The notes under the pieces were generated by a model that was not told the DNA's origin, did not search any database, and worked only from the letters and a program-made list of their open reading frames with translations. Of a stretch of 64,000 bases of DNA, positions 3,219 through 17,448 are shown piece by piece. The position numbers and the translations under genes are program-made. Each line of letters begins with the position of its first letter. Position 1 is the stretch's first letter. Origin of the DNA: an uncultured Clostridium sp. Its GTDB lineage: Bacteria; Bacillota; Clostridia; TANB77; CAG-508. Where the stretch lies: NCBI GenBank assembly GCA_946548575.1, contig CAMNPT010000001.1, positions 48,282 through 112,281 on the forward strand. The letters run 5' to 3'.

Positions 3219-4497
3219 TTAATTTTGCGTATTAGTATTTTGTGTGTCATTTTGTTCATCTGTTTTGTTTTCATTTTTCTCTTCGTCTTTTTTGCTAGCA
3301 TCTGGTATTAAACCATTTGTTATGTATGGCATTGGATCTGTAACAACCCCATTTAGCCTTACTTCAAAATGTGCATGTGCACCTGTAGAATATCCTGTTG
3401 AACCAACCTTTAGTACAGATTCTCCTCTTTTTACAGTTTGTCCGAACTTCTACTAAAATTTCTGAACCATGTGCATATAAAGTAGAAACTCCTCCTCCAT
3501 GGTCTATTATTACCATATTTCCATAAGCAGAATTGAACGCTGCTTTTGTAACAATTCCATCATTTGCAGCTATGAAATTAGCTCCCATTGGCGCACTGAT
3601 ATCTACACCTGTATGTAATTTTGTATAATGTAATATTGGGTGAAATCTCATCCCATATTTTGAACTTATTCTTGTATAACCCGGAACAGGCCAAGCAAGT
3701 TCTCCACCTATATATTTTGAATCTATTCCTTCTAAAGCTTGTGCTAAGATTTCTCTATTTATTTCATTAAATCTTGCATTATACTCATCTATTTGAGTCT
3801 GTAATTCTTTTTCTTGATCAGATAATTTTTCAATAAAATTTTGTCTAACTGTTTTTGTATTTTCAAGAATTTTGGCTGTTTTTGTTTGATTTGATTTTAT
3901 TGTACTTAAATTATTTTGTCTATTTTCAATTTCTTTTTTTGATTTTTCAATTTCTTCTTTTTTTGTTTGCATTTCCTCTAATAATTCACTATCTCTAGTT
4001 GCAAGTTCTGTTATAAGGAAATAATTGGATAAAAACTCAGAAACACTTTTAGAACTTAAGATAACATCTAAGTATTGTGTATCACTAGATTCATAAACTG
4101 CAATCAATCTACTGTCTAGTAATTTTTTTTGTTTTTTAAAGTTTTCTTCAGCTACATTTAATTTAGCTTTTACTTCATCCATTGTACTTTGTAATTTTAC
4201 AATTTCAACATTTAGTTCATCCAATTCTTGTTGTGATTTTTCTATTTTTTCATCCAACTTTTCAATTTGTTGTAGATTTTGTGACAATTCACTTTGAACA
4301 TTTTCTAATTCATCACTTTTTTCATTTATTTGTTCTTGTAATTTTTTTTGTTCATCTTGTATGTTTGTTTGTCCTTCACTATCTTCAGCATAAATATATG
4401 TAAAAATACTAAAACTACAAATTATAAAAGCTAAAAATATACATAAATTTTTATTCATATTCTCCCCATTAATTAATAAATGATATTTATTTTTCAA
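3219..4497 (-). CDS. second coiled-coil M23 metallopeptidase, disrupted by a single-base frameshift (extra base at + strand 3444)
   Basis: ORF 3364..4497 ends in nonsense tail; alternate frame continues VEVGQTVKRGESVLKVGSTGYSTGAHAHFEVRLNGVVTDPMPYITNG to a stop at 3219; gene sense reads gtt-C-gga. Confidence 0.75.
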
Positions 4498-4498
4498 A

Positions 4499-5425
4499 TT
4501 AAACTTTTAAGTATTTTCTCATAGAAATAACACTACCAATTGCACCAATTCCTATTCCAAGTAACATATATGTAAATATAATAGAACTGAACATATCAGA
4601 AAAACTTATTAAGCTCATATTAATTACTTGCATAAACTTTGAATTAACAATTTGTTCAGCTAAGAAACTATAAGCTAATCCAACAACCACTATTGATATA
4701 CTACTAGCTAATAATCCAATAATCATACCTTCTACAATAAACGGCCATCTAATAAAGCTATTTGTTGCTCCAACATATTTCATAATAGATATTTCTTTTC
4801 TTCTTGCATGTACTGTAAGTTTTATTGTATTTGCAATAATAAATATAGATATTATAACTAATAAAACTAAGATTACTCCAGTTACAATTTTTATTCCATT
4901 AGCTAAATCTATTAATGTTGAAACGGTTTCATCTTTACTTGTTATTTTTTTCACATAATCAAAAGTTAAAATTTGGTCTTGTACTTGTTTACTTTGATTT
5001 AGATCTGTTAGTGTAACAACATAAGATGCTGTAAATATATTGTTTTCTCCTTCATATCCTTCTAACAAATCTTTTTTATCTCCAAATTTTTCTTTCATTT
5101 GGTCTAATGCTTGTTCTTTAGAAACAAATTCAGTTGTACTTACTCCATCTATTTTTCTGATTTTCTCGCCTAATTTCTCTATTTCTTCTTGATTTGCTTC
5201 ATTTTTTATAAAAACTTGAATTCCTTGTGCAGATTCTATTTCTTTTACAAAATAATTTATATTTTCACTAAGTATTAAAAAAACTCCAAATATTATCATT
5301 GTTGCACACATAATCATAAGTGATGCACCTGTTGATTTTTTGTTTTTGAATACGTTACTAAATCCTTCTCCTATTAAATATCCTAATCTGTTATATCTCA
5401 TAATCATACCCACCTCTTTTATCAT
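4499..5425 (-). CDS. ftsX: cell division permease-like protein FtsX (true start probably at MRYNRLGY, ~5401)
   Basis: FtsX topology: N-terminal TM, large extracellular loop, three C-terminal TMs; directly downstream of ftsE. Confidence 0.8.
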   Translation of the reverse strand: MIKEVGMIMRYNRLGYLIGEGFSNVFKNKKSTGASLMIMCATMIIFGVFLILSENINYFVKEIESAQGIQVFIKNEANQEEIEKLGEKIRKIDGVSTTEFVSKEQALDQMKEKFGDKKDLLEGYEGENNIFTASYVVTLTDLNQSKQVQDQILTFDYVKKITSKDETVSTLIDLANGIKIVTGVILVLLVIISIFIIANTIKLTVHARRKEISIMKYVGATNSFIRWPFIVEGMIIGLLASSISIVVVGLAYSFLAEQIVNSKFMQVINMSLISFSDMFSSIIFTYMLLGIGIGAIGSVISMRKYLKV

Positions 5426-6077
5426 CTCTTATGATTTCGCCTTTACGAATATGGATAACTCTTTTTTTCATTTGATCTACTATATCTTTTGCATGTGTTG
5501 CAACAACTACTGTAGTTCCTCTCATATTAATATCATTTAATAAATTCATAATATCCCATGCTGTTTCTGGATCCAAATTTCCTGTTGGCTCATCTGCAAT
5601 TAACATTGATGGGTTATTTACTAATGCTCTTGCTAAAGCAACTCTTTGTTGTTCTCCACCTGATAGTTCATTTGGATACATTTTTGCTTTACCACTTAAT
5701 CCTACAAGTGATAAAACCATTGGTACTTGCCTTCTTATATGTCTTGGTGTTGCTCTTACTATATACATAGCATATGCTACATTGTCATATACTGTTTTAT
5801 CTGGTAAAAGTCTAAAATCTTGAAATACAACTCCCATACTTCTTCTTAAATATGGAATTCTACTTGGTTTTAAAAAAGTTGTATCCTTTCCATTTATTAT
5901 TATATTACCACTAGTTGGTTCTTCTTCTTTTAATATTAATTTTATTAATGTAGATTTACCACTTCCTGATGAACCTACTAAAAACGCAAATTCTCCTTTT
6001 TCAATAATGAAATTTGCATTTTTAACAGCTTTTGTACCTGTATCATAGGTTTTATTAACATTTCTAAATTCTATCAT
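5391..6077 (-). CDS. ftsE: cell division ATP-binding protein FtsE
   Basis: ABC ATPase Walker A GSSGSGKST, signature LSGGEQQRVALARAL, Walker B LIADEPT; 228 aa. Confidence 0.85.
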   Translation of the reverse strand: MIEFRNVNKTYDTGTKAVKNANFIIEKGEFAFLVGSSGSGKSTLIKLILKEEEPTSGNIIINGKDTTFLKPSRIPYLRRSMGVVFQDFRLLPDKTVYDNVAYAMYIVRATPRHIRRQVPMVLSLVGLSGKAKMYPNELSGGEQQRVALARALVNNPSMLIADEPTGNLDPETAWDIMNLLNDINMRGTTVVVATHAKDIVDQMKKRVIHIRKGEIIRDDKRGGYDYEI

Positions 6078-6185
6078 TTTTAGTATGCTCCTTACTTTTT
6101 CGCATATTTTTTCTATTCTACATTATCATAACAATAAAATCGTTTTTTTTCAAGGTTTTTCGCAAAAAAAATTATGTCATTTATG

Positions 6186-7112
6186 TTACAAATATTGATT
6201 AATAATATCTTGAGAAGTAATATGAAAATATTCCATTAATTTTTCTGCTTTTCCAGATTTTCCAAATGTATCATTTATCCCTAGTCTAATTAATTTCGTA
6301 GGATATTCTGTTGTTAATACTTCTGATATTGCAGAACCTAATCCTCCTATAATATTATGGTCCTCTATTGATATTAGTTTTTTTGTTTCTTTTGCACTTT
6401 TTATTATAATTTCCTTATCTATTGGCTTTATTGTATGAATATCTATAACTCTAATATTGATACCTTGCTCTTTTAGTATTTGTTGTGCTTTTAGTGCTTC
6501 TGCTACTGTTACTCCTGTTGCGAATACCGTTCCGTCTGTTCCCTCACCTATTTGAACTCCTTTACCTATTTCAAATTTGTATTCTTTCTCATATATGACA
6601 GGTGTTGCTAATCTTGCTAGTCTTAAATACACTGGTCCTTCTTTTTTAGATATTTCTTTAACCGCCCATTTAGCTTGAGTATCATCTGATACTGATATAA
6701 CAGTCATATTTGGCAAAGTCCTCATCATTGATAAATCTTCTATCATTTGGTGTGTTGCACCATCTTCACCTACAGTAATACCACTATGTGTTGCACAAAT
6801 CTTTACATTTAATTTTGGATAACATATACTACTTCTTATTTGGTCATAGCTTCTTCCTGCAGCAAATACTGCAAATGTGCTTACATAAGGGATTTTTTTA
6901 CAAGTTGCAAATCCTGCAGCTGTTGCCATTTCATTTGCTTCAGCTATTCCCATATCAAAAAATCTTTCTGGAAATTCTTTTGCAAATAATTCAGTTTTTG
7001 TAGCTCCTGCTAAATCCGCATCTAAAACTACGATATTTTTGTTTTCCTTTCCTAGCTCTAAAAGAGCTTCTCCATAACTTTGGCGTGTAGCCTTTTTTAT
7101 TTCTAAATTCAT
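6186..7112 (-). CDS. transketolase, C-terminal (pyrimidine-binding) subunit
   Basis: transketolase Pyr/C-terminal domains; pairs with the N-terminal subunit gene upstream. Confidence 0.8.
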   Translation of the reverse strand: MNLEIKKATRQSYGEALLELGKENKNIVVLDADLAGATKTELFAKEFPERFFDMGIAEANEMATAAGFATCKKIPYVSTFAVFAAGRSYDQIRSSICYPKLNVKICATHSGITVGEDGATHQMIEDLSMMRTLPNMTVISVSDDTQAKWAVKEISKKEGPVYLRLARLATPVIYEKEYKFEIGKGVQIGEGTDGTVFATGVTVAEALKAQQILKEQGINIRVIDIHTIKPIDKEIIIKSAKETKKLISIEDHNIIGGLGSAISEVLTTEYPTKLIRLGINDTFGKSGKAEKLMEYFHITSQDIINQYL

Positions 7113-8109: not shown

Positions 8110-9513
8110 ATGTTGAATAATTATATTGATAATCTAAAAGATGAAATTATTAAAAAAACTCAAGAATTAATTCAAATTCCAAGTGTTGATTCCATTTGTG
8201 TAAATCAAATGCATCCTTTCGGTGAAAATGCAAATAAAGCTTTGGAATATATTTTAGAATTAGGAAAATCCTTAGGCTTTAGAACAAAAAATGTAGATGG
8301 ATATTGTGGTTTTATAGAATTTGGAGAAGGTAATGACTTAATTGGAATTATTGGACATTTAGATGTTGTACCAGAAGGTGAAAATTGGACTTTTCCTCCT
8401 TTTAGTGGAACTATATATGATAATAAAATATATGGTAGAGGTGCTATTGATGATAAAGGACCTGTTATCGCTTCACTTTATGCAATGAAAGCAGTTATGG
8501 ATAATTATAAAATAAATAAAAGAGTTAGACTAATTTTAGGTTTAAATGAAGAAAAAAATTGGAAATGTATCAATTATTATAAAGAACATGAAGAAATTCC
8601 AAAAATAGGATTTAGTCCTGATGCTGATTTTCCTGTTATTTATGCAGAAAAATCTATTATCACTTCATATTTTAAAGAACATTATGTTGATAAGAATTCA
8701 GATTTATTTATTAAAGAAATAGATTGTAATAATGCTATAAATGTTGTTCCAAAAATATGTAGTTGCATCTTGAAAATAAATTCTGAAAAGATTACAATGG
8801 ATAATTTAATACATGATATTCAAAATATTTTAAATAATTATGACTATGAAATAGATATTTATAAAATTAGTAATGACGAATTAAAACTCACTTCACATGG
8901 TATTCAAGCACATAGCGCACATCCTAATCTTGGAGTTAATGCAATTTCTAGATTAATTATTATTTTAAATGACATTTTTAATAAATATAACTCACCAATA
9001 GAAATTTTTAATTTCTTTAGTAAGTATATCGGCATTCAGTATAATGGTGAAAATCTAAATATAAATGTTAAAGATGAATCCGGAATTCTTACTTTAAATG
9101 TTGGTGATTTTACTTTAAAAGATAATGTTTTATCTATTGGATTAAATATCAGAATTCCAATAAATACTACTATTGCCGATATAGAAAATAAAATAATTAC
9201 AATAACTAAAAATTATTCTAATTTATCTTTTGCAACAACACATCAAATTCCTAGCTTATTTATACCAAAAGATAATCACCTGATTAAGACACTTTGTAAA
9301 ATTTATAATGAGGAAACAAATTCAAATGAAGAACCTATTGCAATTGGAGGTGCAACTTTTGCAAGAGCTTTCCCAAATTGTGTTTCTTTTGGGGCAAATC
9401 TTGCCCATCAGAAAGACATGTGTCATCAAACAGATGAATTTATTACAATAGATAATTTAATAATTGCTTGTAAAATATATGCAAAAGCAATAAAAACTTT
9501 AGCAGATTCTTAA
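8110..9513 (+). CDS. pepV: M20 family dipeptidase (peptidase V-like)
   Basis: M20/ArgE/DapE motifs IGHLDVVP, GRGAIDDKGP; 467 aa typical of PepV/Sapep. Confidence 0.8.
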   Translation: MLNNYIDNLKDEIIKKTQELIQIPSVDSICVNQMHPFGENANKALEYILELGKSLGFRTKNVDGYCGFIEFGEGNDLIGIIGHLDVVPEGENWTFPPFSGTIYDNKIYGRGAIDDKGPVIASLYAMKAVMDNYKINKRVRLILGLNEEKNWKCINYYKEHEEIPKIGFSPDADFPVIYAEKSIITSYFKEHYVDKNSDLFIKEIDCNNAINVVPKICSCILKINSEKITMDNLIHDIQNILNNYDYEIDIYKISNDELKLTSHGIQAHSAHPNLGVNAISRLIIILNDIFNKYNSPIEIFNFFSKYIGIQYNGENLNINVKDESGILTLNVGDFTLKDNVLSIGLNIRIPINTTIADIENKIITITKNYSNLSFATTHQIPSLFIPKDNHLIKTLCKIYNEETNSNEEPIAIGGATFARAFPNCVSFGANLAHQKDMCHQTDEFITIDNLIIACKIYAKAIKTLADS

Positions 9514-11628: not shown

Positions 11629-12354
11629 ATGAGTTTTGTTATAGATTGTATAAAAGGTATCGCAATTGGAAGTGGAGCCATTTTACCTGGTATTAGTAGT
11701 GGTGTATTTATGGTTATTTTTGGGATTTATGAAAAATTTTTGGATAGTATATTAAACTTTTTTGATAATCCTAAAAAAAATTTTTTGTTTTTATTACCTT
11801 ATATTATTGGTATTTTTTTTGGTGTTTTTATCTTTGGTAATATTTTAAATTACTTATTTATTAAATTTCCAATACAAATTAAGTGTTTATTTTGTATATT
11901 AATTTTGAGTAGTCTTCCAAAATTAATAAAAGAAACCAATACTAAGGTTTCTTTTAAGTTTTATTACATAATCTATATATTAATTGCATTTGCAATTGGT
12001 TTTTTTTCTGTTTATTTAGAAAAAAATATTTCTTTTGATGGATGTTTTAATTATAATTTTTTCTATTTATTTTTTTGTGGTTTTCTTATGTCTATTGGTG
12101 TTGTTGTTCCTGGACTAAGTAGTACAGTTATTTTAATGTTGTTAGGTATTTATTCAGTATATTTAAATTCAATTTCTTATATATATCTACCAATTCTATT
12201 ACCTATGGGATTTGGGCTAATTATTGGCTCATTATTTTTTATGAAATTAATTAAATATTTATTAGAAAATTTTTATGCCCAGACATTTTATAGCATCATT
12301 GGTTTTAGTTTAGGATCTATACTTGTTCTTCTGCCTTTTACTTTTTTCTTCTAA
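11629..12354 (+). CDS. DUF368 family membrane protein
   Basis: polytopic membrane protein with duplicated G(I/L)S(S/R)(S/G) motifs typical of DUF368; GAGGTG RBS. Confidence 0.6.
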   Translation: MSFVIDCIKGIAIGSGAILPGISSGVFMVIFGIYEKFLDSILNFFDNPKKNFLFLLPYIIGIFFGVFIFGNILNYLFIKFPIQIKCLFCILILSSLPKLIKETNTKVSFKFYYIIYILIAFAIGFFSVYLEKNISFDGCFNYNFFYLFFCGFLMSIGVVVPGLSSTVILMLLGIYSVYLNSISYIYLPILLPMGFGLIIGSLFFMKLIKYLLENFYAQTFYSIIGFSLGSILVLLPFTFFF

Positions 12355-13579
12355 TTATCCAGTTTTTTTCACATTTTATTGGTAGTTTCATCTTTACTTT
12401 TTGCCCTTTTACTCCTGGGCTTATTTCCTGTATTTCTTCATTTGTTTCAACATCATATAATTTTTCTATTTTAAATTCTTCTGCTTTAATTTTATTTGGT
12501 ACAATTATTTCCAAAACATCTCCAACTGATAATTTATTTTTTATTTCTATTATAGCTAAATCATCTTCACAATTATCAATAATTTTTCCACCAAATTCAT
12601 AATTTTCATTATATTGTTTTCCACTATATTCTTGGATATCTTTGTTATTTCTTTCATTAAAGTAAAATGTTGTTAATCCTCTTGTCTTTACTTTTTCTAA
12701 CTCTTTTAAATATAAATTATAGTCATAATTTTCAGGATCTTTTTTATAATCATCTATTGCATTTCTATATGCATTTATAACACTTGCTAAATAATATTCT
12801 GTTTTTAATCTTCCCTCAATCTTTAGGCTATCTATTCCCATTTCAATAATTTCTGGTATTTCTTTTATTAAACATAAGTCTTTTGAAGAAAAAATGCTTG
12901 TACCATATTCATTTATTTCTATTGGCATAAATCCTCCAGGATTATTTTTTTCTTCTGCATACAAATTATATGACCATCTACAGCTTTGCGCACAATCTCC
13001 TAAATTTGCGCTTCTACATGATAAAAAATCACTTAAGAAACATCTTCCAGAATATGCAAAGCATATAGCTCCATGAACAAATATTTCTATTTCCATTCCA
13101 TCTGGTTTATTTTCCATTATGTATTTTAGTTGTTCTTTATTTATTTCTCTAGCCATTATCATTCTTTTTGCTCCATTTTTGTACCAGAAATTTGCTGAAT
13201 GTAGGCTTACAACATTTGCTTGTGTGCTTACATTTATTTTTACACTTGGAGCATACTGTTTTATAACTTCTATAACTCCTCCATCTGCTGCAATTATTCC
13301 ATCAGGTTTTAACTCTTCCAATTTTTTTGCCATTTCTATTATTTCATCATATTTTTCGTCCCAAGCAAAAATATTTAAAGTTACATATACTTTCTTTCCT
13401 ATGCTATGGGCATATTTTATTGTTTTTTCTAAGTCATCATTTTCCATATCTGCTCTTGTTCTTAATGATAATGATGATGTTCCAGCATAAACTGCATCTG
13501 CTCCATAAAGAAAAGCTATTTTTGCTTTTTCATAAGAACCAGCTGGTGCTAATAATTCTATTTCTTTCATTTTTATCAC
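12338..13579 (-). CDS. U32 family peptidase (YrrO/TrhP-like, possibly tRNA U34 hydroxylation)
   Basis: U32 collagenase-family N-terminus MKEIELLAPAGS...; 413 aa; lies near an O-methyltransferase as in B. subtilis yrrM-yrrN-yrrO. Confidence 0.75.
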   Translation of the reverse strand: MIKMKEIELLAPAGSYEKAKIAFLYGADAVYAGTSSLSLRTRADMENDDLEKTIKYAHSIGKKVYVTLNIFAWDEKYDEIIEMAKKLEELKPDGIIAADGGVIEVIKQYAPSVKINVSTQANVVSLHSANFWYKNGAKRMIMAREINKEQLKYIMENKPDGMEIEIFVHGAICFAYSGRCFLSDFLSCRSANLGDCAQSCRWSYNLYAEEKNNPGGFMPIEINEYGTSIFSSKDLCLIKEIPEIIEMGIDSLKIEGRLKTEYYLASVINAYRNAIDDYKKDPENYDYNLYLKELEKVKTRGLTTFYFNERNNKDIQEYSGKQYNENYEFGGKIIDNCEDDLAIIEIKNKLSVGDVLEIIVPNKIKAEEFKIEKLYDVETNEEIQEISPGVKGQKVKMKLPIKCEKNWIIRRKK

Positions 13580-13716
13580 TACTTTCTTATAATTTTGTTT
13601 ACCATAATATTATATAAGTCTTTGAAAACATTGTCAATACTTTATTTTTACCATATTTTATGTTATAATATAATTAAGTAACTTTGTTGTAAATTTTTTT
13701 AAGGAGGTAATTTTAT

Positions 13717-14520
13717 ATGCGACAAATACCATCATTAGATCAAGCTTTTAAAGGAGCAAAAAGTGTTCCGGAAGTTATCCGGAATCAGATTGGACTTCTT
13801 AATTTAGAAGCTAAATCTAATGAAATAACAATATTTACCCGTCGACTAGAGTTATATTACAGTTACATAACTGATAAAACTCTACTCAAAACTCAAAGAG
13901 AATTTTTTGAAGGCTTCTATCACGAAATTGATGAAAAATATCCAGATATTCTTTTTAGACTAGAGGGTAGGCGAAAATCATTCATAAGTGCATACAAAAA
14001 GCTCTGGCGAGCAGATTCTTATGCAACAATGAAAGATATTTCCGGTTTTAGAATTACCCTTTTTGGGGATGATTCTGAAAAACTCATTAAGCAGTGCTAT
14101 ACTGTAATGGATTTGCTATTTAATTATAGCTTAAATGCTGAAGAAGTAGAACCATGCATGGCAACACCGCTAAAGGATACAAAACGTTCAGGTAACTCAT
14201 CATTACTCTCTGAAGATATCCAGCCTTATGTTAAGGATTATATTCATAATCCAAAAGAAAATGGATATCAAAGTCTTCACATGATTTTCCAAGCAAAGCT
14301 TGGCTATTATTTCGAAGTTCAAATTAGGACATTTGATATGCATATGCATGCAGAATATGGTCAAGCTTCACACGCTGTTTACAAGAAAAAATATGATGAA
14401 CTGGAATTTGACCGAAGTTTGGTTAATATTCCTGGATATTGTATAATAGGAGATAAACTATATGACTGGGTAGGTCTAGAGGAATCTCAGGAGATTCTGC
14501 GTAGACAGAAAACCTTCTAA
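13717..14520 (+). CDS. RelA/SpoT-domain protein (small alarmone synthetase-like, possibly toxSAS-like); GC-rich insertion
   Basis: motifs EGRRKSFISAYKKL, DISGFRITLFG, ENGYQSLHMIF, FEVQIRTFDMHMHAEYG; ~40% GC vs ~27% flanks; strong RBS AAGGAGG. Confidence 0.7.
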   Translation: MRQIPSLDQAFKGAKSVPEVIRNQIGLLNLEAKSNEITIFTRRLELYYSYITDKTLLKTQREFFEGFYHEIDEKYPDILFRLEGRRKSFISAYKKLWRADSYATMKDISGFRITLFGDDSEKLIKQCYTVMDLLFNYSLNAEEVEPCMATPLKDTKRSGNSSLLSEDIQPYVKDYIHNPKENGYQSLHMIFQAKLGYYFEVQIRTFDMHMHAEYGQASHAVYKKKYDELEFDRSLVNIPGYCIIGDKLYDWVGLEESQEILRRQKTF

Positions 14521-14528
14521 AAAAATTT

Positions 14529-14563
14529 CCCACCATTAAGCAATTGCTTAGGTGGGATTTTTA
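14529..14563. terminator. strong bidirectional terminator (CCCACC...GGTGGG stem with inner TAAGCAATTGCTTA palindrome)
   Basis: long GC-containing hairpin flanked by A-run upstream and T-run downstream. Confidence 0.7.
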
Positions 14564-15148
14564 TTTTAATATACTTATTGCAAGTCCATCTCCAACATCT
14601 AAAATTTCTGTATCTAAATTTGGATTATCTAGTACTTCTTTTATATATTCTCTTAAATTTCTAACTGCTGTTCTTTGTTTATGTTTATTATAATCACTCA
14701 TGACATAACCTTTGTATAAAATATTATCTGCAAAAATTACTCCGCCTTTTTTTAATAATCTTAATGATTCTTTTAAGAAAAATGGATATTTTCCCTTTGC
14801 TGCATCAATAAATATCATATCATATTTTTTATCTAAACTTGGGAGAATTTCAACAGCATCACCCTCATAAATATTTATTTGTCTTTTTACATCTGCTCTT
14901 TTTATATTTTCCCTTGCTTCTATTACTCTTTCTTTTTCTCTTTCTATTGTATCTATAGTTCCATCTTCACTTAAAAATTCTGAAAAACAAATTGCAGAAT
15001 AACCTACTGCTGTACCAATTTCTAGAATATCAATTATTTCTTTATTTTCTAAATATTTTTTTATTGTTTCTAATGTGTCATCCATTATTATTGGAATATG
15101 ATCTTCTAAAGCTTTTTGTTTAATTTTTTGTAATTCTATCTTATTCAT
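14561..15148 (-). CDS. class I SAM-dependent O-methyltransferase (YrrM/TrmR-like)
   Basis: O-methyltransferase family 3 fold, SAM-binding ILEIGTAVGYS, DMIFIDAAK; 195 aa. Confidence 0.7.
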   Translation of the reverse strand: MNKIELQKIKQKALEDHIPIIMDDTLETIKKYLENKEIIDILEIGTAVGYSAICFSEFLSEDGTIDTIEREKERVIEARENIKRADVKRQINIYEGDAVEILPSLDKKYDMIFIDAAKGKYPFFLKESLRLLKKGGVIFADNILYKGYVMSDYNKHKQRTAVRNLREYIKEVLDNPNLDTEILDVGDGLAISILK

Positions 15149-15620
15149 GTTCTATTCCTTTTTCACCAGTATTTTCTTCATATACTGACATTATAATTGA
15201 TTGAAAAAATTTATTATGATTTCTAAATTGTTGTACACTTGATAAAGCTTTAATAATTTCTTCTTCATTTTTTCCATTTTGCATTTCACGTTTTATTTTT
15301 TTAACCATTTGTTGTCTTTTTGAAAATGTATCATTTATCCATCCTTCAAAATAAGCTCCAAATTTCTTATATTTCTCTTCAGAATTTAATTTTTCGATTA
15401 ATTCAGCTATTGATTTATTATTGTAAACATAATCAAATATCAATTCCATAATTTCTATTTTTACCTTATAATATTCCTTATTTTCAGATTGAGTTTTTTT
15501 ATTTTTTTCTGTTTCTATTGGTTTGATATATATTTTATCTACAAAACTTGAATAAACATTTCTATCTGGAACTTTATGTAATCTATTAGTTCCATTATTT
15601 TTTTTATTAGAGTATCTCAT
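15141..15620 (-). CDS. hypothetical protein
   Basis: 159 aa ORF, lysine-rich; 8 nt overlap with the downstream methyltransferase suggests an operon. Confidence 0.4.
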   Translation of the reverse strand: MRYSNKKNNGTNRLHKVPDRNVYSSFVDKIYIKPIETEKNKKTQSENKEYYKVKIEIMELIFDYVYNNKSIAELIEKLNSEEKYKKFGAYFEGWINDTFSKRQQMVKKIKREMQNGKNEEEIIKALSSVQQFRNHNKFFQSIIMSVYEENTGEKGIEHE

Positions 15621-15629
15621 ATTTATCTC

Positions 15630-17448
15630 CTATTTATTATTTCTAGCTGCCCTTTCACGTTCTTTACTATCTAATATTTTCTTTCTTAAACGAATTGATT
15701 TTGGAGTTACTTCTACTAACTCGTCATCTTGTATAAATTCAATTGCTTTTTCTAATGACATTTGAATAGGTGGCACTAAACGCAATGCTTCATCTGAACC
15801 AGAAGCTCTAGTATTTGTTAAGTGTTTTTCTTTACATACATTTATTGCTAAATCCTCTCCCCTCGAATTTAGACCAACTATCATTCCTTCATATACCTCT
15901 ACACCAGGTCCGGATAAACAATTCTCCTTTATCTTGTGCATTATATAATCCGTAAGTCACAGATTTTCCATTTTCAAAAGCTATAATTGTTCCTCTAACT
16001 CTAGATTGAATATCACCTTTATATGGTTCATAAGAGTCAAATATATGGTTCATTATACCTTCACCTTTTGTGTCTGTTAAGAATTCTGTTCTGTAACCAA
16101 TAATTCCTCTTGCTGGAATTTTAAACTCTATTTTTGTATGTCCATCTTCTGCTGGCTCCATATTTACCATTTCAGCTTTTCTTCTACCTAGCTTTTCTAT
16201 AACATTTCCAACACAATCATCTGGTACATTTACAACTAATAATTCAATTGGTTCACATTTTACTCCATCAATTTCTTTAAAAATAACTTTTGGTCTAGAT
16301 ACTAAAAGCTCAAAACCTTCTCTTCTCATTGTTTCTATTAATACTGATAAATGAAGTTCTCCTCTTCCTGAAACTTCGAAACTATCTGGTGTTTCTGTTT
16401 CTTTGACCCTTAAAGATACATTTCTCTCTAATTCTTTAAATAATCTATCTCTTATATGTCTTGATGTTATTAAATTTCCTTCTTTTCCTGCAAAAGGTCC
16501 ATTATTAACACTAAATGTCATAGAAACTGTAGGCTCATCAATATCTACAAATGGGATTTTTTCTGGATGATCAAAATCACAAATTGTATCTCCAATATTA
16601 ATATTTGAAAGGCCTGCAAGTTCTATAATATCCCCAGCTTTACCTTCTTCTACTTCTACCTTATTTAAACCAATATGAGTATAAATTTTGGCGATTCTTC
16701 CTTGCAAAATTTTATCTTCTTTTCCGCAAATTGAAACAGGCATACCTAATTTAATAATTCCTCTTTCTACTCTTCCTACTGCAATTCTACCAACATAGTC
16801 ATCATAATCTATATTAGAAACAAGCATTTGAGCAGGTCCTTCTTCATCACAATTTGGTGCACTAATAGTATTTATAATTGTATCAAAAAGACATGATAAA
16901 TCTTCTGAATTATCATTTAAATCCATCTTTGCTATACCTTGTTTTGCAGATGCATATACAACAGGAAATTCTAACTGTTCATCAGTTGCATCTAACTCTA
17001 TAAAAAGTTCAATTACTTGATCCACAACTTTTTCAGGAGTAGCTCCAGGTCTATCTATTTTGTTAATAACAACTATTGGTTTTAATCCTAATGCTAGAGA
17101 TTTTTTTAAAACCTCTCTTGTTTGAGGCATTGCACCTTCAAACGCATCAACCAATAAAAGTACTCCATCAACAGTTTTAAGAACCCTCTCAACCTCTCCA
17201 CCAAAATCAGCATGGCCTGGTGTATCTACTATATTAATTTTTATATCTCCATGCATAACTGAAGTATTTTTAGAAAGAATTGTAATTCCTCTTTCCTTTT
17301 CTTGGTCATTAGAATCCATTACTCTTTCTTGTATTTGTTCATTTTCTCTAAAAATATTACTTTGTTTAAGCATTGCATCAACCAATGTAGTTTTACCATG
17401 ATCTACGTGTGCTATAATTGCTATATTTCTTATTTTTTCATTTATCAT
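15630..17448 (-). CDS. typA: translational GTPase TypA/BipA, +1 frameshift at + strand ~15912
   Basis: N-terminal AHVDHGKTTL, DTPGHADFGGEVER; ORF 15889..17448 ends ...GELFIRTWCRGI* while the next frame continues GPGVEVYEGMIVG...KSIRLRKK (ORF 15630..15941); atc-C-gga. Confidence 0.8.

Follow-up and report, generated by a model that had tools for sequence, protein, structure and literature searches.

The locus described here raises the question of what a lone RelA/SpoT-domain gene is doing between two genes for tRNA modification, on the strand opposite to both. The gene lies in a 64,000-nucleotide stretch of a contig from an uncultured Clostridium sp. (CAMNPT010000001.1, positions 48,282 to 112,281; assembly GCA_946548575.1), which we call the window and whose own numbering is used for all coordinates. 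It occupies 13717-14520 of the plus strand, encodes 267 amino acids (aa), and is flanked by a U32-family gene and a gene for a SAM-dependent O-methyltransferase (OMT). A first-pass annotation had read it as a GC-rich insertion encoding a small alarmone synthetase (SAS), possibly of the toxic (toxSAS) kind. We found that the SAS gene is intact and under selection, has its own signals, encodes a Rel-like active site and has no partner gene. On balance, the cassette probably represents a catalytically intact, monocistronic, accessory Rel-like (p)ppGpp synthetase housed in an exchangeable slot for genes of the RelA/SpoT homologue (RSH) superfamily.

The extent of the cassette was read from a relative in which the slot is empty. 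In a blastn comparison with this locus (L009), similarity stops at 13578 and restarts at 14559, so that the cassette, meaning the sequence absent from relatives with abutting OMT and U32 genes, measures 980 bp (13579-14558). This is nearly the span of 13581-14565 given in the first-pass annotation. Within it, a Shine-Dalgarno sequence, AAGGAGG (13702-13708, plus strand), can be read directly 8 nt 5' of the ATG. A consensus scan returned a promoter-like site for the SAS gene (TTTACC-16-TATAAT, 13647-13674, plus strand, 10 of 12 matches), which is a pattern match only. The same scan found a full-consensus sigma-70 promoter on the minus strand, facing the U32 gene (TTGACA-17-TATAAT, 13609-13637, 12 of 12 matches). 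RNA folding placed the hairpin of a bidirectional intrinsic terminator between the convergent SAS and OMT genes (14528-14557; dG -19.7 kcal/mol, z -4.5), bordered by an A-run at 14519-14525 and a T-run from 14558, and none of 200 shuffled sequences folded equally well. The strong bidirectional terminator that had been proposed for the gene is borne out by these signals, and the promoter region of its own is matched by the promoter-like site.

The flanking genes on the minus strand also agree with their earlier assignments. The U32-family gene (12338-13579; Pfam PF01136 and PF16325) is TrhP/YrrO-like, its top NCBIfam match being TrhP at 352 bits, under the cutoff of 534, and comparison of its N-terminus with those of relatives places the probable real start at the ATG at 13570 (MKEIELLAP...). 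The OMT gene (14561-15148; Pfam Methyltransf_3, E=5.5e-31) is TrmR/YrrM-like. No open reading frame (ORF) fits into the 137-bp and 40-bp spaces beside the SAS gene, in agreement with the earlier view that it lacks an antitoxin-like partner.

The composition of the gene is unusual for the window, if less extreme than first stated. Its GC content is 34.1% against 26.5% for the window, so the value of about 40% in a context of about 27% does not hold, but the anomaly does. Among the 63 window ORFs of at least 120 aa, the SAS gene ranks top both for GC and for GC at third codon positions (GC3; z=3.9), and it falls within the top 0.2% of 804-bp windows. Its GC3 is 23.9%, compared with 7-17% in its neighbours. 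Strand orientation was considered as a cause and discarded because other plus-strand genes (8110-9513 and 11629-12354) have normal GC3 values of 0.10-0.13.

The only Pfam domain in the protein is RelA_SpoT (PF04607, residues 84-225, E=1.1e-21, 77.6 bits against a cutoff of 27), as the first-pass annotation had recognized. We aligned the window protein with 28 database relatives and found 13 invariant positions (R85, K87, K95, D107, R112, Y128, Y175, Y184, Q185, E200, Q202, R204 and H219), which lie in the ATP-site and EVQIRT strands and include the catalytic Asp and the G-loop Tyr. The claim that all core synthetase motifs are present in a protein longer than RelQ and RelP is thus confirmed, the difference in length being 40-60 residues. 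The stretch from the G-loop to the Syn5 motif (172-224) is the most conserved in the family and the top-scoring one against every (p)ppGpp synthetase; by our own count on the phmmer alignment, 30 of its 53 residues are identical to those of B. subtilis Rel. In RelSeq, the guanosine ring is held by the loop residues Y308, N306 and K305 (PMC7983052), and the matching loop, P-K-x-N-x-Y-Q-S-L-H, is conserved in the window SAS.

An AlphaFold2 (AF2) model of high quality (pLDDT 92.4, pTM 0.88) shows three N-terminal helices (17-74), the synthetase (SYNTH) core, an insert loop of 25-30 residues that separates the second motif from the third, and a three-strand unit (241-265). Family members vary most in the N-terminal helices and in the insert loop, and the window SAS has a lineage-specific deletion of 14 residues in this loop. 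The 42 residues downstream of Syn5 (226-267) contain no YXXY, and the family consensus at this end is conserved (IPGY...D..GLEES.EILRRQKTY). The isoelectric point is 6.3, and therefore the protein overall lacks the basic character that might be expected of a tRNA binder.

Its place among RSH enzymes was judged from profile and fold rankings against solved representatives rather than from a tree with published RSH subfamily models. The protein belongs to the RSH synthetases by its PF04607 match and by R85, K87, D107, Y184, E200 and Q202, and it is an SAS in that SYNTH stands alone, with no HD, TGS or ACT domain in the 267 aa. A phmmer search against PDB sequences put Firmicute long Rel on top, with RelP and RelQ much weaker. 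The family profile gave the same order (Rel 8e-22, RelA ~1e-17, RelP ~1e-13, RelQ ~1e-8), followed by FaRel2 at 0.012 over the ATP-site strands only, and did not detect CapRel or Tas1 among these sequences. Foldseek with the AF2 model again gave this order, with Rel, RelP and RelQ at 1e-7 to 1e-5 (probability 1.00), and CapRel (2.7e-4, TM 0.31) and Tas1 (0.03) were the weakest fold matches among RSH structures. The clustering with housekeeping RelQ/RelP that had been named as grounds for dropping the original proposal was not observed; both rank under long Rel. The toxSAS label as given is not supported, in view of the Rel-first ranking in profile and fold and of the lack of a bicistronic toxin-antitoxin arrangement here and in the family contexts examined, a divergent hydrolase gene in one lineage aside.

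No family-level NCBIfam model matches the protein: GTPPhKinYjbM, the RelP/RelQ model, scores 25.6 bits against a cutoff of 320, and TIGR00691, for long RSH proteins, 81.6 bits against 499. An exhaustive profile search recovered 202 clusters at 50% identity with E<=1e-30, and the 150 clusters listed are mostly of 270-330 aa and match over almost their full length. At least about 200 full-length clusters without a family-level model therefore point to a distinct SAS subfamily. The window gene would be a new member of this uncharacterized, Rel-like subfamily, for which we found neither a characterized member nor a curated model.

To see the gene in its wider setting, we took a single genome for each species and searched it with the U32 protein, which yielded 80 loci, all from metagenome-assembled genomes of uncultured gut or rumen Clostridia with U32 proteins 68-91% identical. 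In these loci, the OMT and U32 matches lie between 25 and 3522 bp apart. In five of them (L009, L010, L012, L042 and L082) the slot is tightly closed, with 10-25 nt, including a ribosome-binding site (RBS), between the OMT stop and the U32 start, an operon junction. The SAS gene thus splits two genes that adjoin in empty-slot relatives, as the first-pass annotation had proposed. Short scars are present in L039 and L049. The 147-bp spacer of L049 retains a terminator hairpin and a perfect TTGACA-17-TATAAT in an otherwise empty slot and has the look of a remnant left by the deletion of a cassette. A perfect consensus promoter 5' of U32 occurs in about 40 occupied loci and is missing from the tight empty junctions.

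An RSH-superfamily gene adjoins U32 in 41 of the 80 loci, and in 27 of these 41 it belongs to the SAS family of the window. The catalytic and acceptor-site residues are retained in all 33 slot SAS paralogues, and three loci carry tandem SAS pairs (L065, L078 and L083). Other occupants are larger. Those of 392 aa match RelA_SpoT weakly, one of 673 aa matches it at E=6e-7, and those of 520-712 aa have no Pfam match yet align to the SAS profile over all motifs (hhalign E=1.6e-5, 174 columns). SAS genes and the RSH-like genes of 392-712 aa lie on the strand opposite to U32 in every case. The large genes were seen in L018 (712 aa), L019, L024, L029, L034, L044, L046, L070 and L080, and genes for 392-418 aa in L017, L024, L025 and L029. 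The large proteins bear RxKS, DxxG and NGF.AIY...EVQLQ motifs, some are paired with a second RSH-like gene, and they appear to be strongly diverged RSH-fold proteins with long extra domains. A 244-aa slot protein (cluster c22, L045 and L057) looked RSH-like by eye, a resemblance that hhalign did not support. Further occupants are a family II pyrophosphatase and a CmpB-type membrane protein. Our best reading is that the OMT-U32 position is a slot dedicated to RelA/SpoT-superfamily genes in a clade of small-genome gut Clostridia.

The slot also accommodates long Rel. In L048 it holds a 568-aa long Rel (4280-5983; HD_4, RelA_SpoT, TGS and ACT) in the same orientation as U32, and co-oriented long Rel genes fill the slot of L120-L123 (for instance L120 5001-6689 and L123 5001-6716). 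In relatives of the L048 Rel (P0183 and P0188) the order is typA-OMT-rel-U32, all in one orientation. These compact Rels (562-571 aa), co-oriented with the operon, have changed synthetase motifs, VETKH for GRxKH and EAQICS for EVQIRT, along with DLFSIKI and YQAIH, and so far as sequence can tell they may be chiefly hydrolases, SpoT-like. Their close relatives (57-70% identity) dominate the top database matches. In L071, a slot SAS is found together with a canonical long Rel (733 aa) that lies about 2 kb past U32. The slot is thus a position for RSH genes in the wider clade, and a housekeeping Rel and the SAS can be present side by side.

Positional orthologues of the SAS, all between U32 and OMT or typA, share 73-75% protein identity with it in L001 and L007, 54-56% in L002-L004 and 36-39% in L087 and L090. 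Collinearity of the window with L007 (82% nucleotide identity) extends over the entire region and takes in the cassette. We rejected a recent horizontal insertion of the kind that the earlier description implied, on account of this collinearity and of synteny down to 36% protein identity. A clade-wide insertion of host-like composition had been named as what would refute the proposal; the gene does occur widely in the clade, yet with a composition unlike the host's. Of 33 slot SAS genes (L001-L085), 29 have a GC3 above the local median (mean 0.22 against an average local median of 0.14), and therefore raised GC3 is a property of the SAS gene family across the clade and not of the window gene alone.

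In neighbour-joining trees of U32 or of U32 with TypA, which are approximate and of uncertain rooting, occupied slots occur throughout and empty ones are dispersed, which fits an old occupant with repeated loss. Presence or absence of a slot SAS differs even among closest relatives. The contents can differ completely between similar flanks: L017 and L025 have flanks 94% and 90% identical around 1.18-kb SAS genes without nucleotide similarity (30% protein identity), and a 331-aa SAS in one of L020 and L080 is matched by a 704-aa RSH-like gene in the other. In species pairs whose U32 proteins are 97-99% identical, the SAS proteins are just 30-93% identical. The best reading is of an old slot, emptied repeatedly and exchanged by recombination in the conserved flanks. 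The gene itself is under purifying selection (dN/dS 0.11 against the L007 orthologue; range 0.11-0.29), the divergence of its protein from that of L007 is like that of neighbouring non-core genes and no faster, and alleles at least 90% identical were found on 15 contigs from several sources. A higher synonymous divergence of the SAS (pS 0.67, compared with 0.37-0.51 in the flanks) was set aside as a sign of older alleles because near-saturation and differing GC3 make the comparison unreliable.

No antitoxin partner was found at the window locus, and the family gene is also single in L001, L087, L090, L091 and L092. The sole exception is L002-L004, where a gene for a small hydrolase with an HD_4 domain (SAH) lies between U32 and the SAS gene, divergent from the latter. 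These three scaffolds, from a ruminant metagenome in ENA, also have broken core genes (typA in pieces of 138 and 443 aa or in three pieces, argS in 458 and 76 aa, OMT called at 75 aa), which points to error-rich assembly, pseudogenization or unusual decoding. No integrase or other mark of a mobile element was seen at the slot. A phage or plasmid origin was rejected, as no homologue above about 34% identity was found in INPHARED, PLSDB or IMG/VR and BFVD gave weak fold matches only. PADLOC returned PDC-S33 only (residues 170-212), and its matches, like those of PHROGs, are restricted to a catalytic motif of about 40 residues. The one defence-like neighbourhood seen in the family is that of L091, where a distant member (6001-6924, 34% identity) stands alone and antisense, with prfA-like/LemA genes on one side, a JetA/JetD (Wadjet-type) gene on the other, and a ParE toxin-antitoxin pair at a distance of 2.5 kb.

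If the cassette encodes an accessory (p)ppGpp synthetase, the SYNTH core would bind ATP through the R85-x-K87 strand and D107, and a guanosine nucleotide would stack on Y184 of the Rel-type G-loop (PKxNGYQSLH). E200 and Q202 would then serve the transfer of the beta,gamma-pyrophosphate of ATP onto the 3'-OH of GDP or GTP, with (p)ppGpp as the product. The gene would be transcribed from its own promoter, opposite to the typA-orf159-OMT and U32 genes. The cassette terminator would stop both convergent transcripts, and the outward-facing perfect promoter would drive U32 again behind the cassette, keeping the flanking genes expressed. Such a protein would be an accessory, strain-variable source of alarmone, like RelP and RelQ, distinct from the housekeeping long Rel and not a member of a toxin-antitoxin pair.

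Several observations weigh against this reading. The guanosine preference would follow from motif conservation alone. No other RSH gene, HD or TGS similarity or (p)ppGpp hydrolase was found elsewhere in the 64-kb window. The conserved C-terminal unit and the variable N-terminal helices could be regulatory or sensor elements. Finally, the replacement of cassettes, their patchy presence among close relatives, the tandem paralogues, the large RSH-like variants and the elevated GC3 are more characteristic of conflict or defence genes than of housekeeping signalling. These last features give its main competitor some weight, namely that the protein is a self-contained conflict or defence effector, held inert by its C-terminal unit, its N-terminal helices or oligomerization until a phage trigger releases a flood of alarmone and abortive infection, with phages driving the swapping of cassettes. 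We regard this as rather unlikely, if the most serious of the competitors. It would account for a hypervariable slot in which flanks 90-94% identical surround unrelated cassettes, for SAS divergence among species with nearly identical U32, for presence or absence among closest relatives, for tandem paralogues and RSH-like variants of 520-712 aa, for N-terminal helices and an insert loop that vary around a fixed active site, for GC3 elevated across lineages, and for the distant member beside JetA/JetD and ParE genes. It has precedents in CapRel, a single-polypeptide toxSAS, and in GRel, an antiphage SAS that makes pppGpp and is harmless alone. Yet the PADLOC and PHROGs matches do not extend beyond the catalytic motif, no close homologues were found in the phage, plasmid and IMG/VR collections, and the protein has neither a pZFD-like C-terminal domain nor YXXY. 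The cargo of the slot is nearly all RSH-type, unlike the mixed systems of known defence hotspots, some species have a long Rel in the identical slot, and the SAS has evolved no faster than neighbouring non-core genes in the comparison with L007. A bolder version is that the OMT-U32 junction is an undescribed hypervariable RSH locus diversifying as cassettes are exchanged, genes duplicate in tandem and domains are gained, with phages or competitors as the selective force, and that the window SAS is a trigger-activated (p)ppGpp effector of abortive infection founding a new single-gene class of RSH immunity; we offer it as speculation that is more doubtful still.

An altogether different chemistry appears improbable. 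The enzyme might direct pyrophosphate to adenosine nucleotides or to tRNA, making (pp)pApp or modifying the tRNA 3'-CCA as toxSASs do, perhaps in connection with the two flanking tRNA-modification genes, and be neutralized by a hydrolase encoded elsewhere. All RSH synthetases have the catalytic Tyr, Asp and Glu, which therefore do not discriminate, and an SAH does lie beside the L002-L004 orthologue, SAHs being able to neutralize every toxSAS class. Nevertheless, the protein most resembles Rel in its acceptor-site segment, and FaRel2 aligns over the ATP-site strands only. Tas1 and CapRel are the weakest RSH fold matches, the isoelectric point is near neutral, and a strong RBS is improbable on an unguarded toxin gene. 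We give even less credence to a decaying, functionless relic of an ancestral rel locus, which would be very surprising here. The long Rel in the slot of some relatives, the repeated emptying of the slot and the 14-residue loop deletion in the window protein are what such decay might produce, but they are opposed by the purifying selection, by catalytic residues retained in the 33 slot paralogues, by an intact ORF, RBS, promoter-like site and terminator, and by the recurrence of an allele at least 90% identical on 15 contigs.

Two features next to the cassette were also recorded. A 159-codon ORF (orf159, 15141-15620, minus strand) sits between typA and OMT and shares 8 nt with the start of OMT. 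This is another insertion of variable occurrence, 63% identical in L007 and absent from L009, L008, L078, L011 and L002; where it is absent, typA and OMT are separated by about 140 bp or by other sequence. Its Pfam matches (GCR1_C and DUF1699) are sub-threshold. We considered it as a hidden antitoxin and rejected it, as it is present in L007 but missing in L078 and L002 despite their related SAS genes. The typA/bipA gene (15630-17448, minus strand) is interrupted near 15925, where an additional C (TTT ATC C GGA CCT) divides it into ORFs of 519 and 103 aa. A separate species (L001/L007; TTT ATA C GGA) has this base as well, whereas the frame is kept in 14 other relatives. Between the two species with the split gene, TypA is still 99% identical (dN/dS 0.018). 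In the zero frame the site reads CGG, presumably an uncommon codon in such an AT-rich genome, and a stop follows 6 codons later. The site is a candidate for a programmed +1 frameshift or a tolerated split.

Taken alone, the SAS gene is an unstudied yet recognizable small alarmone synthetase, and the unexpected part is the exchangeable slot dedicated to RSH genes. A single position inside a translation and tRNA-modification operon can hold a long Rel, a divergent SAS, tandem SASs, large RSH-like proteins unseen by Pfam, or nothing. The slot is thus a natural series for the loss, replacement and repurposing of stringent-response enzymes in genome-reduced gut bacteria, and a test case for whether partner-less, guanosine-specific synthetases can act as conflict systems. 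Either answer would widen the continuum of toxSASs and SASs proposed by Jimmy et al. (2020).

Among known systems, the toxSASs (FaRel, FaRel2, PhRel, PhRel2 and CapRel; Jimmy et al. 2020, PMC7229694) resemble the window family in being SASs outside the RelP/RelQ groups with variable presence, and FaRel also adjoins an SAH, as one orthologue of the window family does. They differ in their conserved bi- or tricistronic operons, pZFD or YXXY, all missing from the window family, whose isoelectric point is near neutral. FaRel2 is matched over the ATP site only, and CapRel, in which a pseudo-zinc-finger antitoxin domain with YXXY follows toxSYNTH, by fold alone. GRel/Pag1B of the PANGU system is a guanosine-specific, pppGpp-making SAS that acts as an immune effector and is harmless alone (bioRxiv 10.64898/2026.04.06.716658). 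As far as its description allows a comparison, PANGU differs in being bicistronic with a nucleoid-associated sensor and in the C-terminal DNA-mimic domain of Pag1B, neither of which is in the window cassette. The slot recalls core-genome defence hotspots (the cDHS of P. aeruginosa, PMC10250203) in its variable cargo between constant core genes and in exchange through conserved flanks. Its cargo, however, is almost solely RSH-superfamily, consists of one or two genes antisense to the flanks (the co-oriented long Rel aside), and lacks a mixture of known defence systems.

Closer parallels lie among the alarmone synthetases themselves. The cloRel group is likewise an uncharacterized Firmicutes SAS subgroup (Atkinson et al. 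2011, PMC3153485), a likeness drawn from its listing rather than from compared sequences. RelP and RelQ are single-domain (p)ppGpp synthetases accessory to long Rel, as the window protein probably is too and as the coexistence in L071 suggests for the window family; they lack toxicity and, like the window gene, an antitoxin. Their sequence similarity to the window SAS is weak, they are shorter, and they carry a C-terminal helical bundle for tetramerization where the model of the window protein predicts a small beta unit. The closest match in sequence and fold is the SYNTH domain of long Rel (B. subtilis Rel, 8acu and 6yxa; S. aureus Rel, 7oiw). The window SAS differs from it in lacking HD and TGS/ACT, in an extra loop of about 25-45 residues between Syn2 and Syn3, in the 42-residue C-terminal beta unit, and in being encoded on the opposite strand. 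The two share the motifs RxKS, DxxGxR, KDYIxxPKxNxYQSLH, EVQIRT and AxHxxYK, the helix before strand 1 of the window SAS aligns with the Rel helices that precede SYNTH, and sister lineages carry a long Rel at the identical genomic slot.

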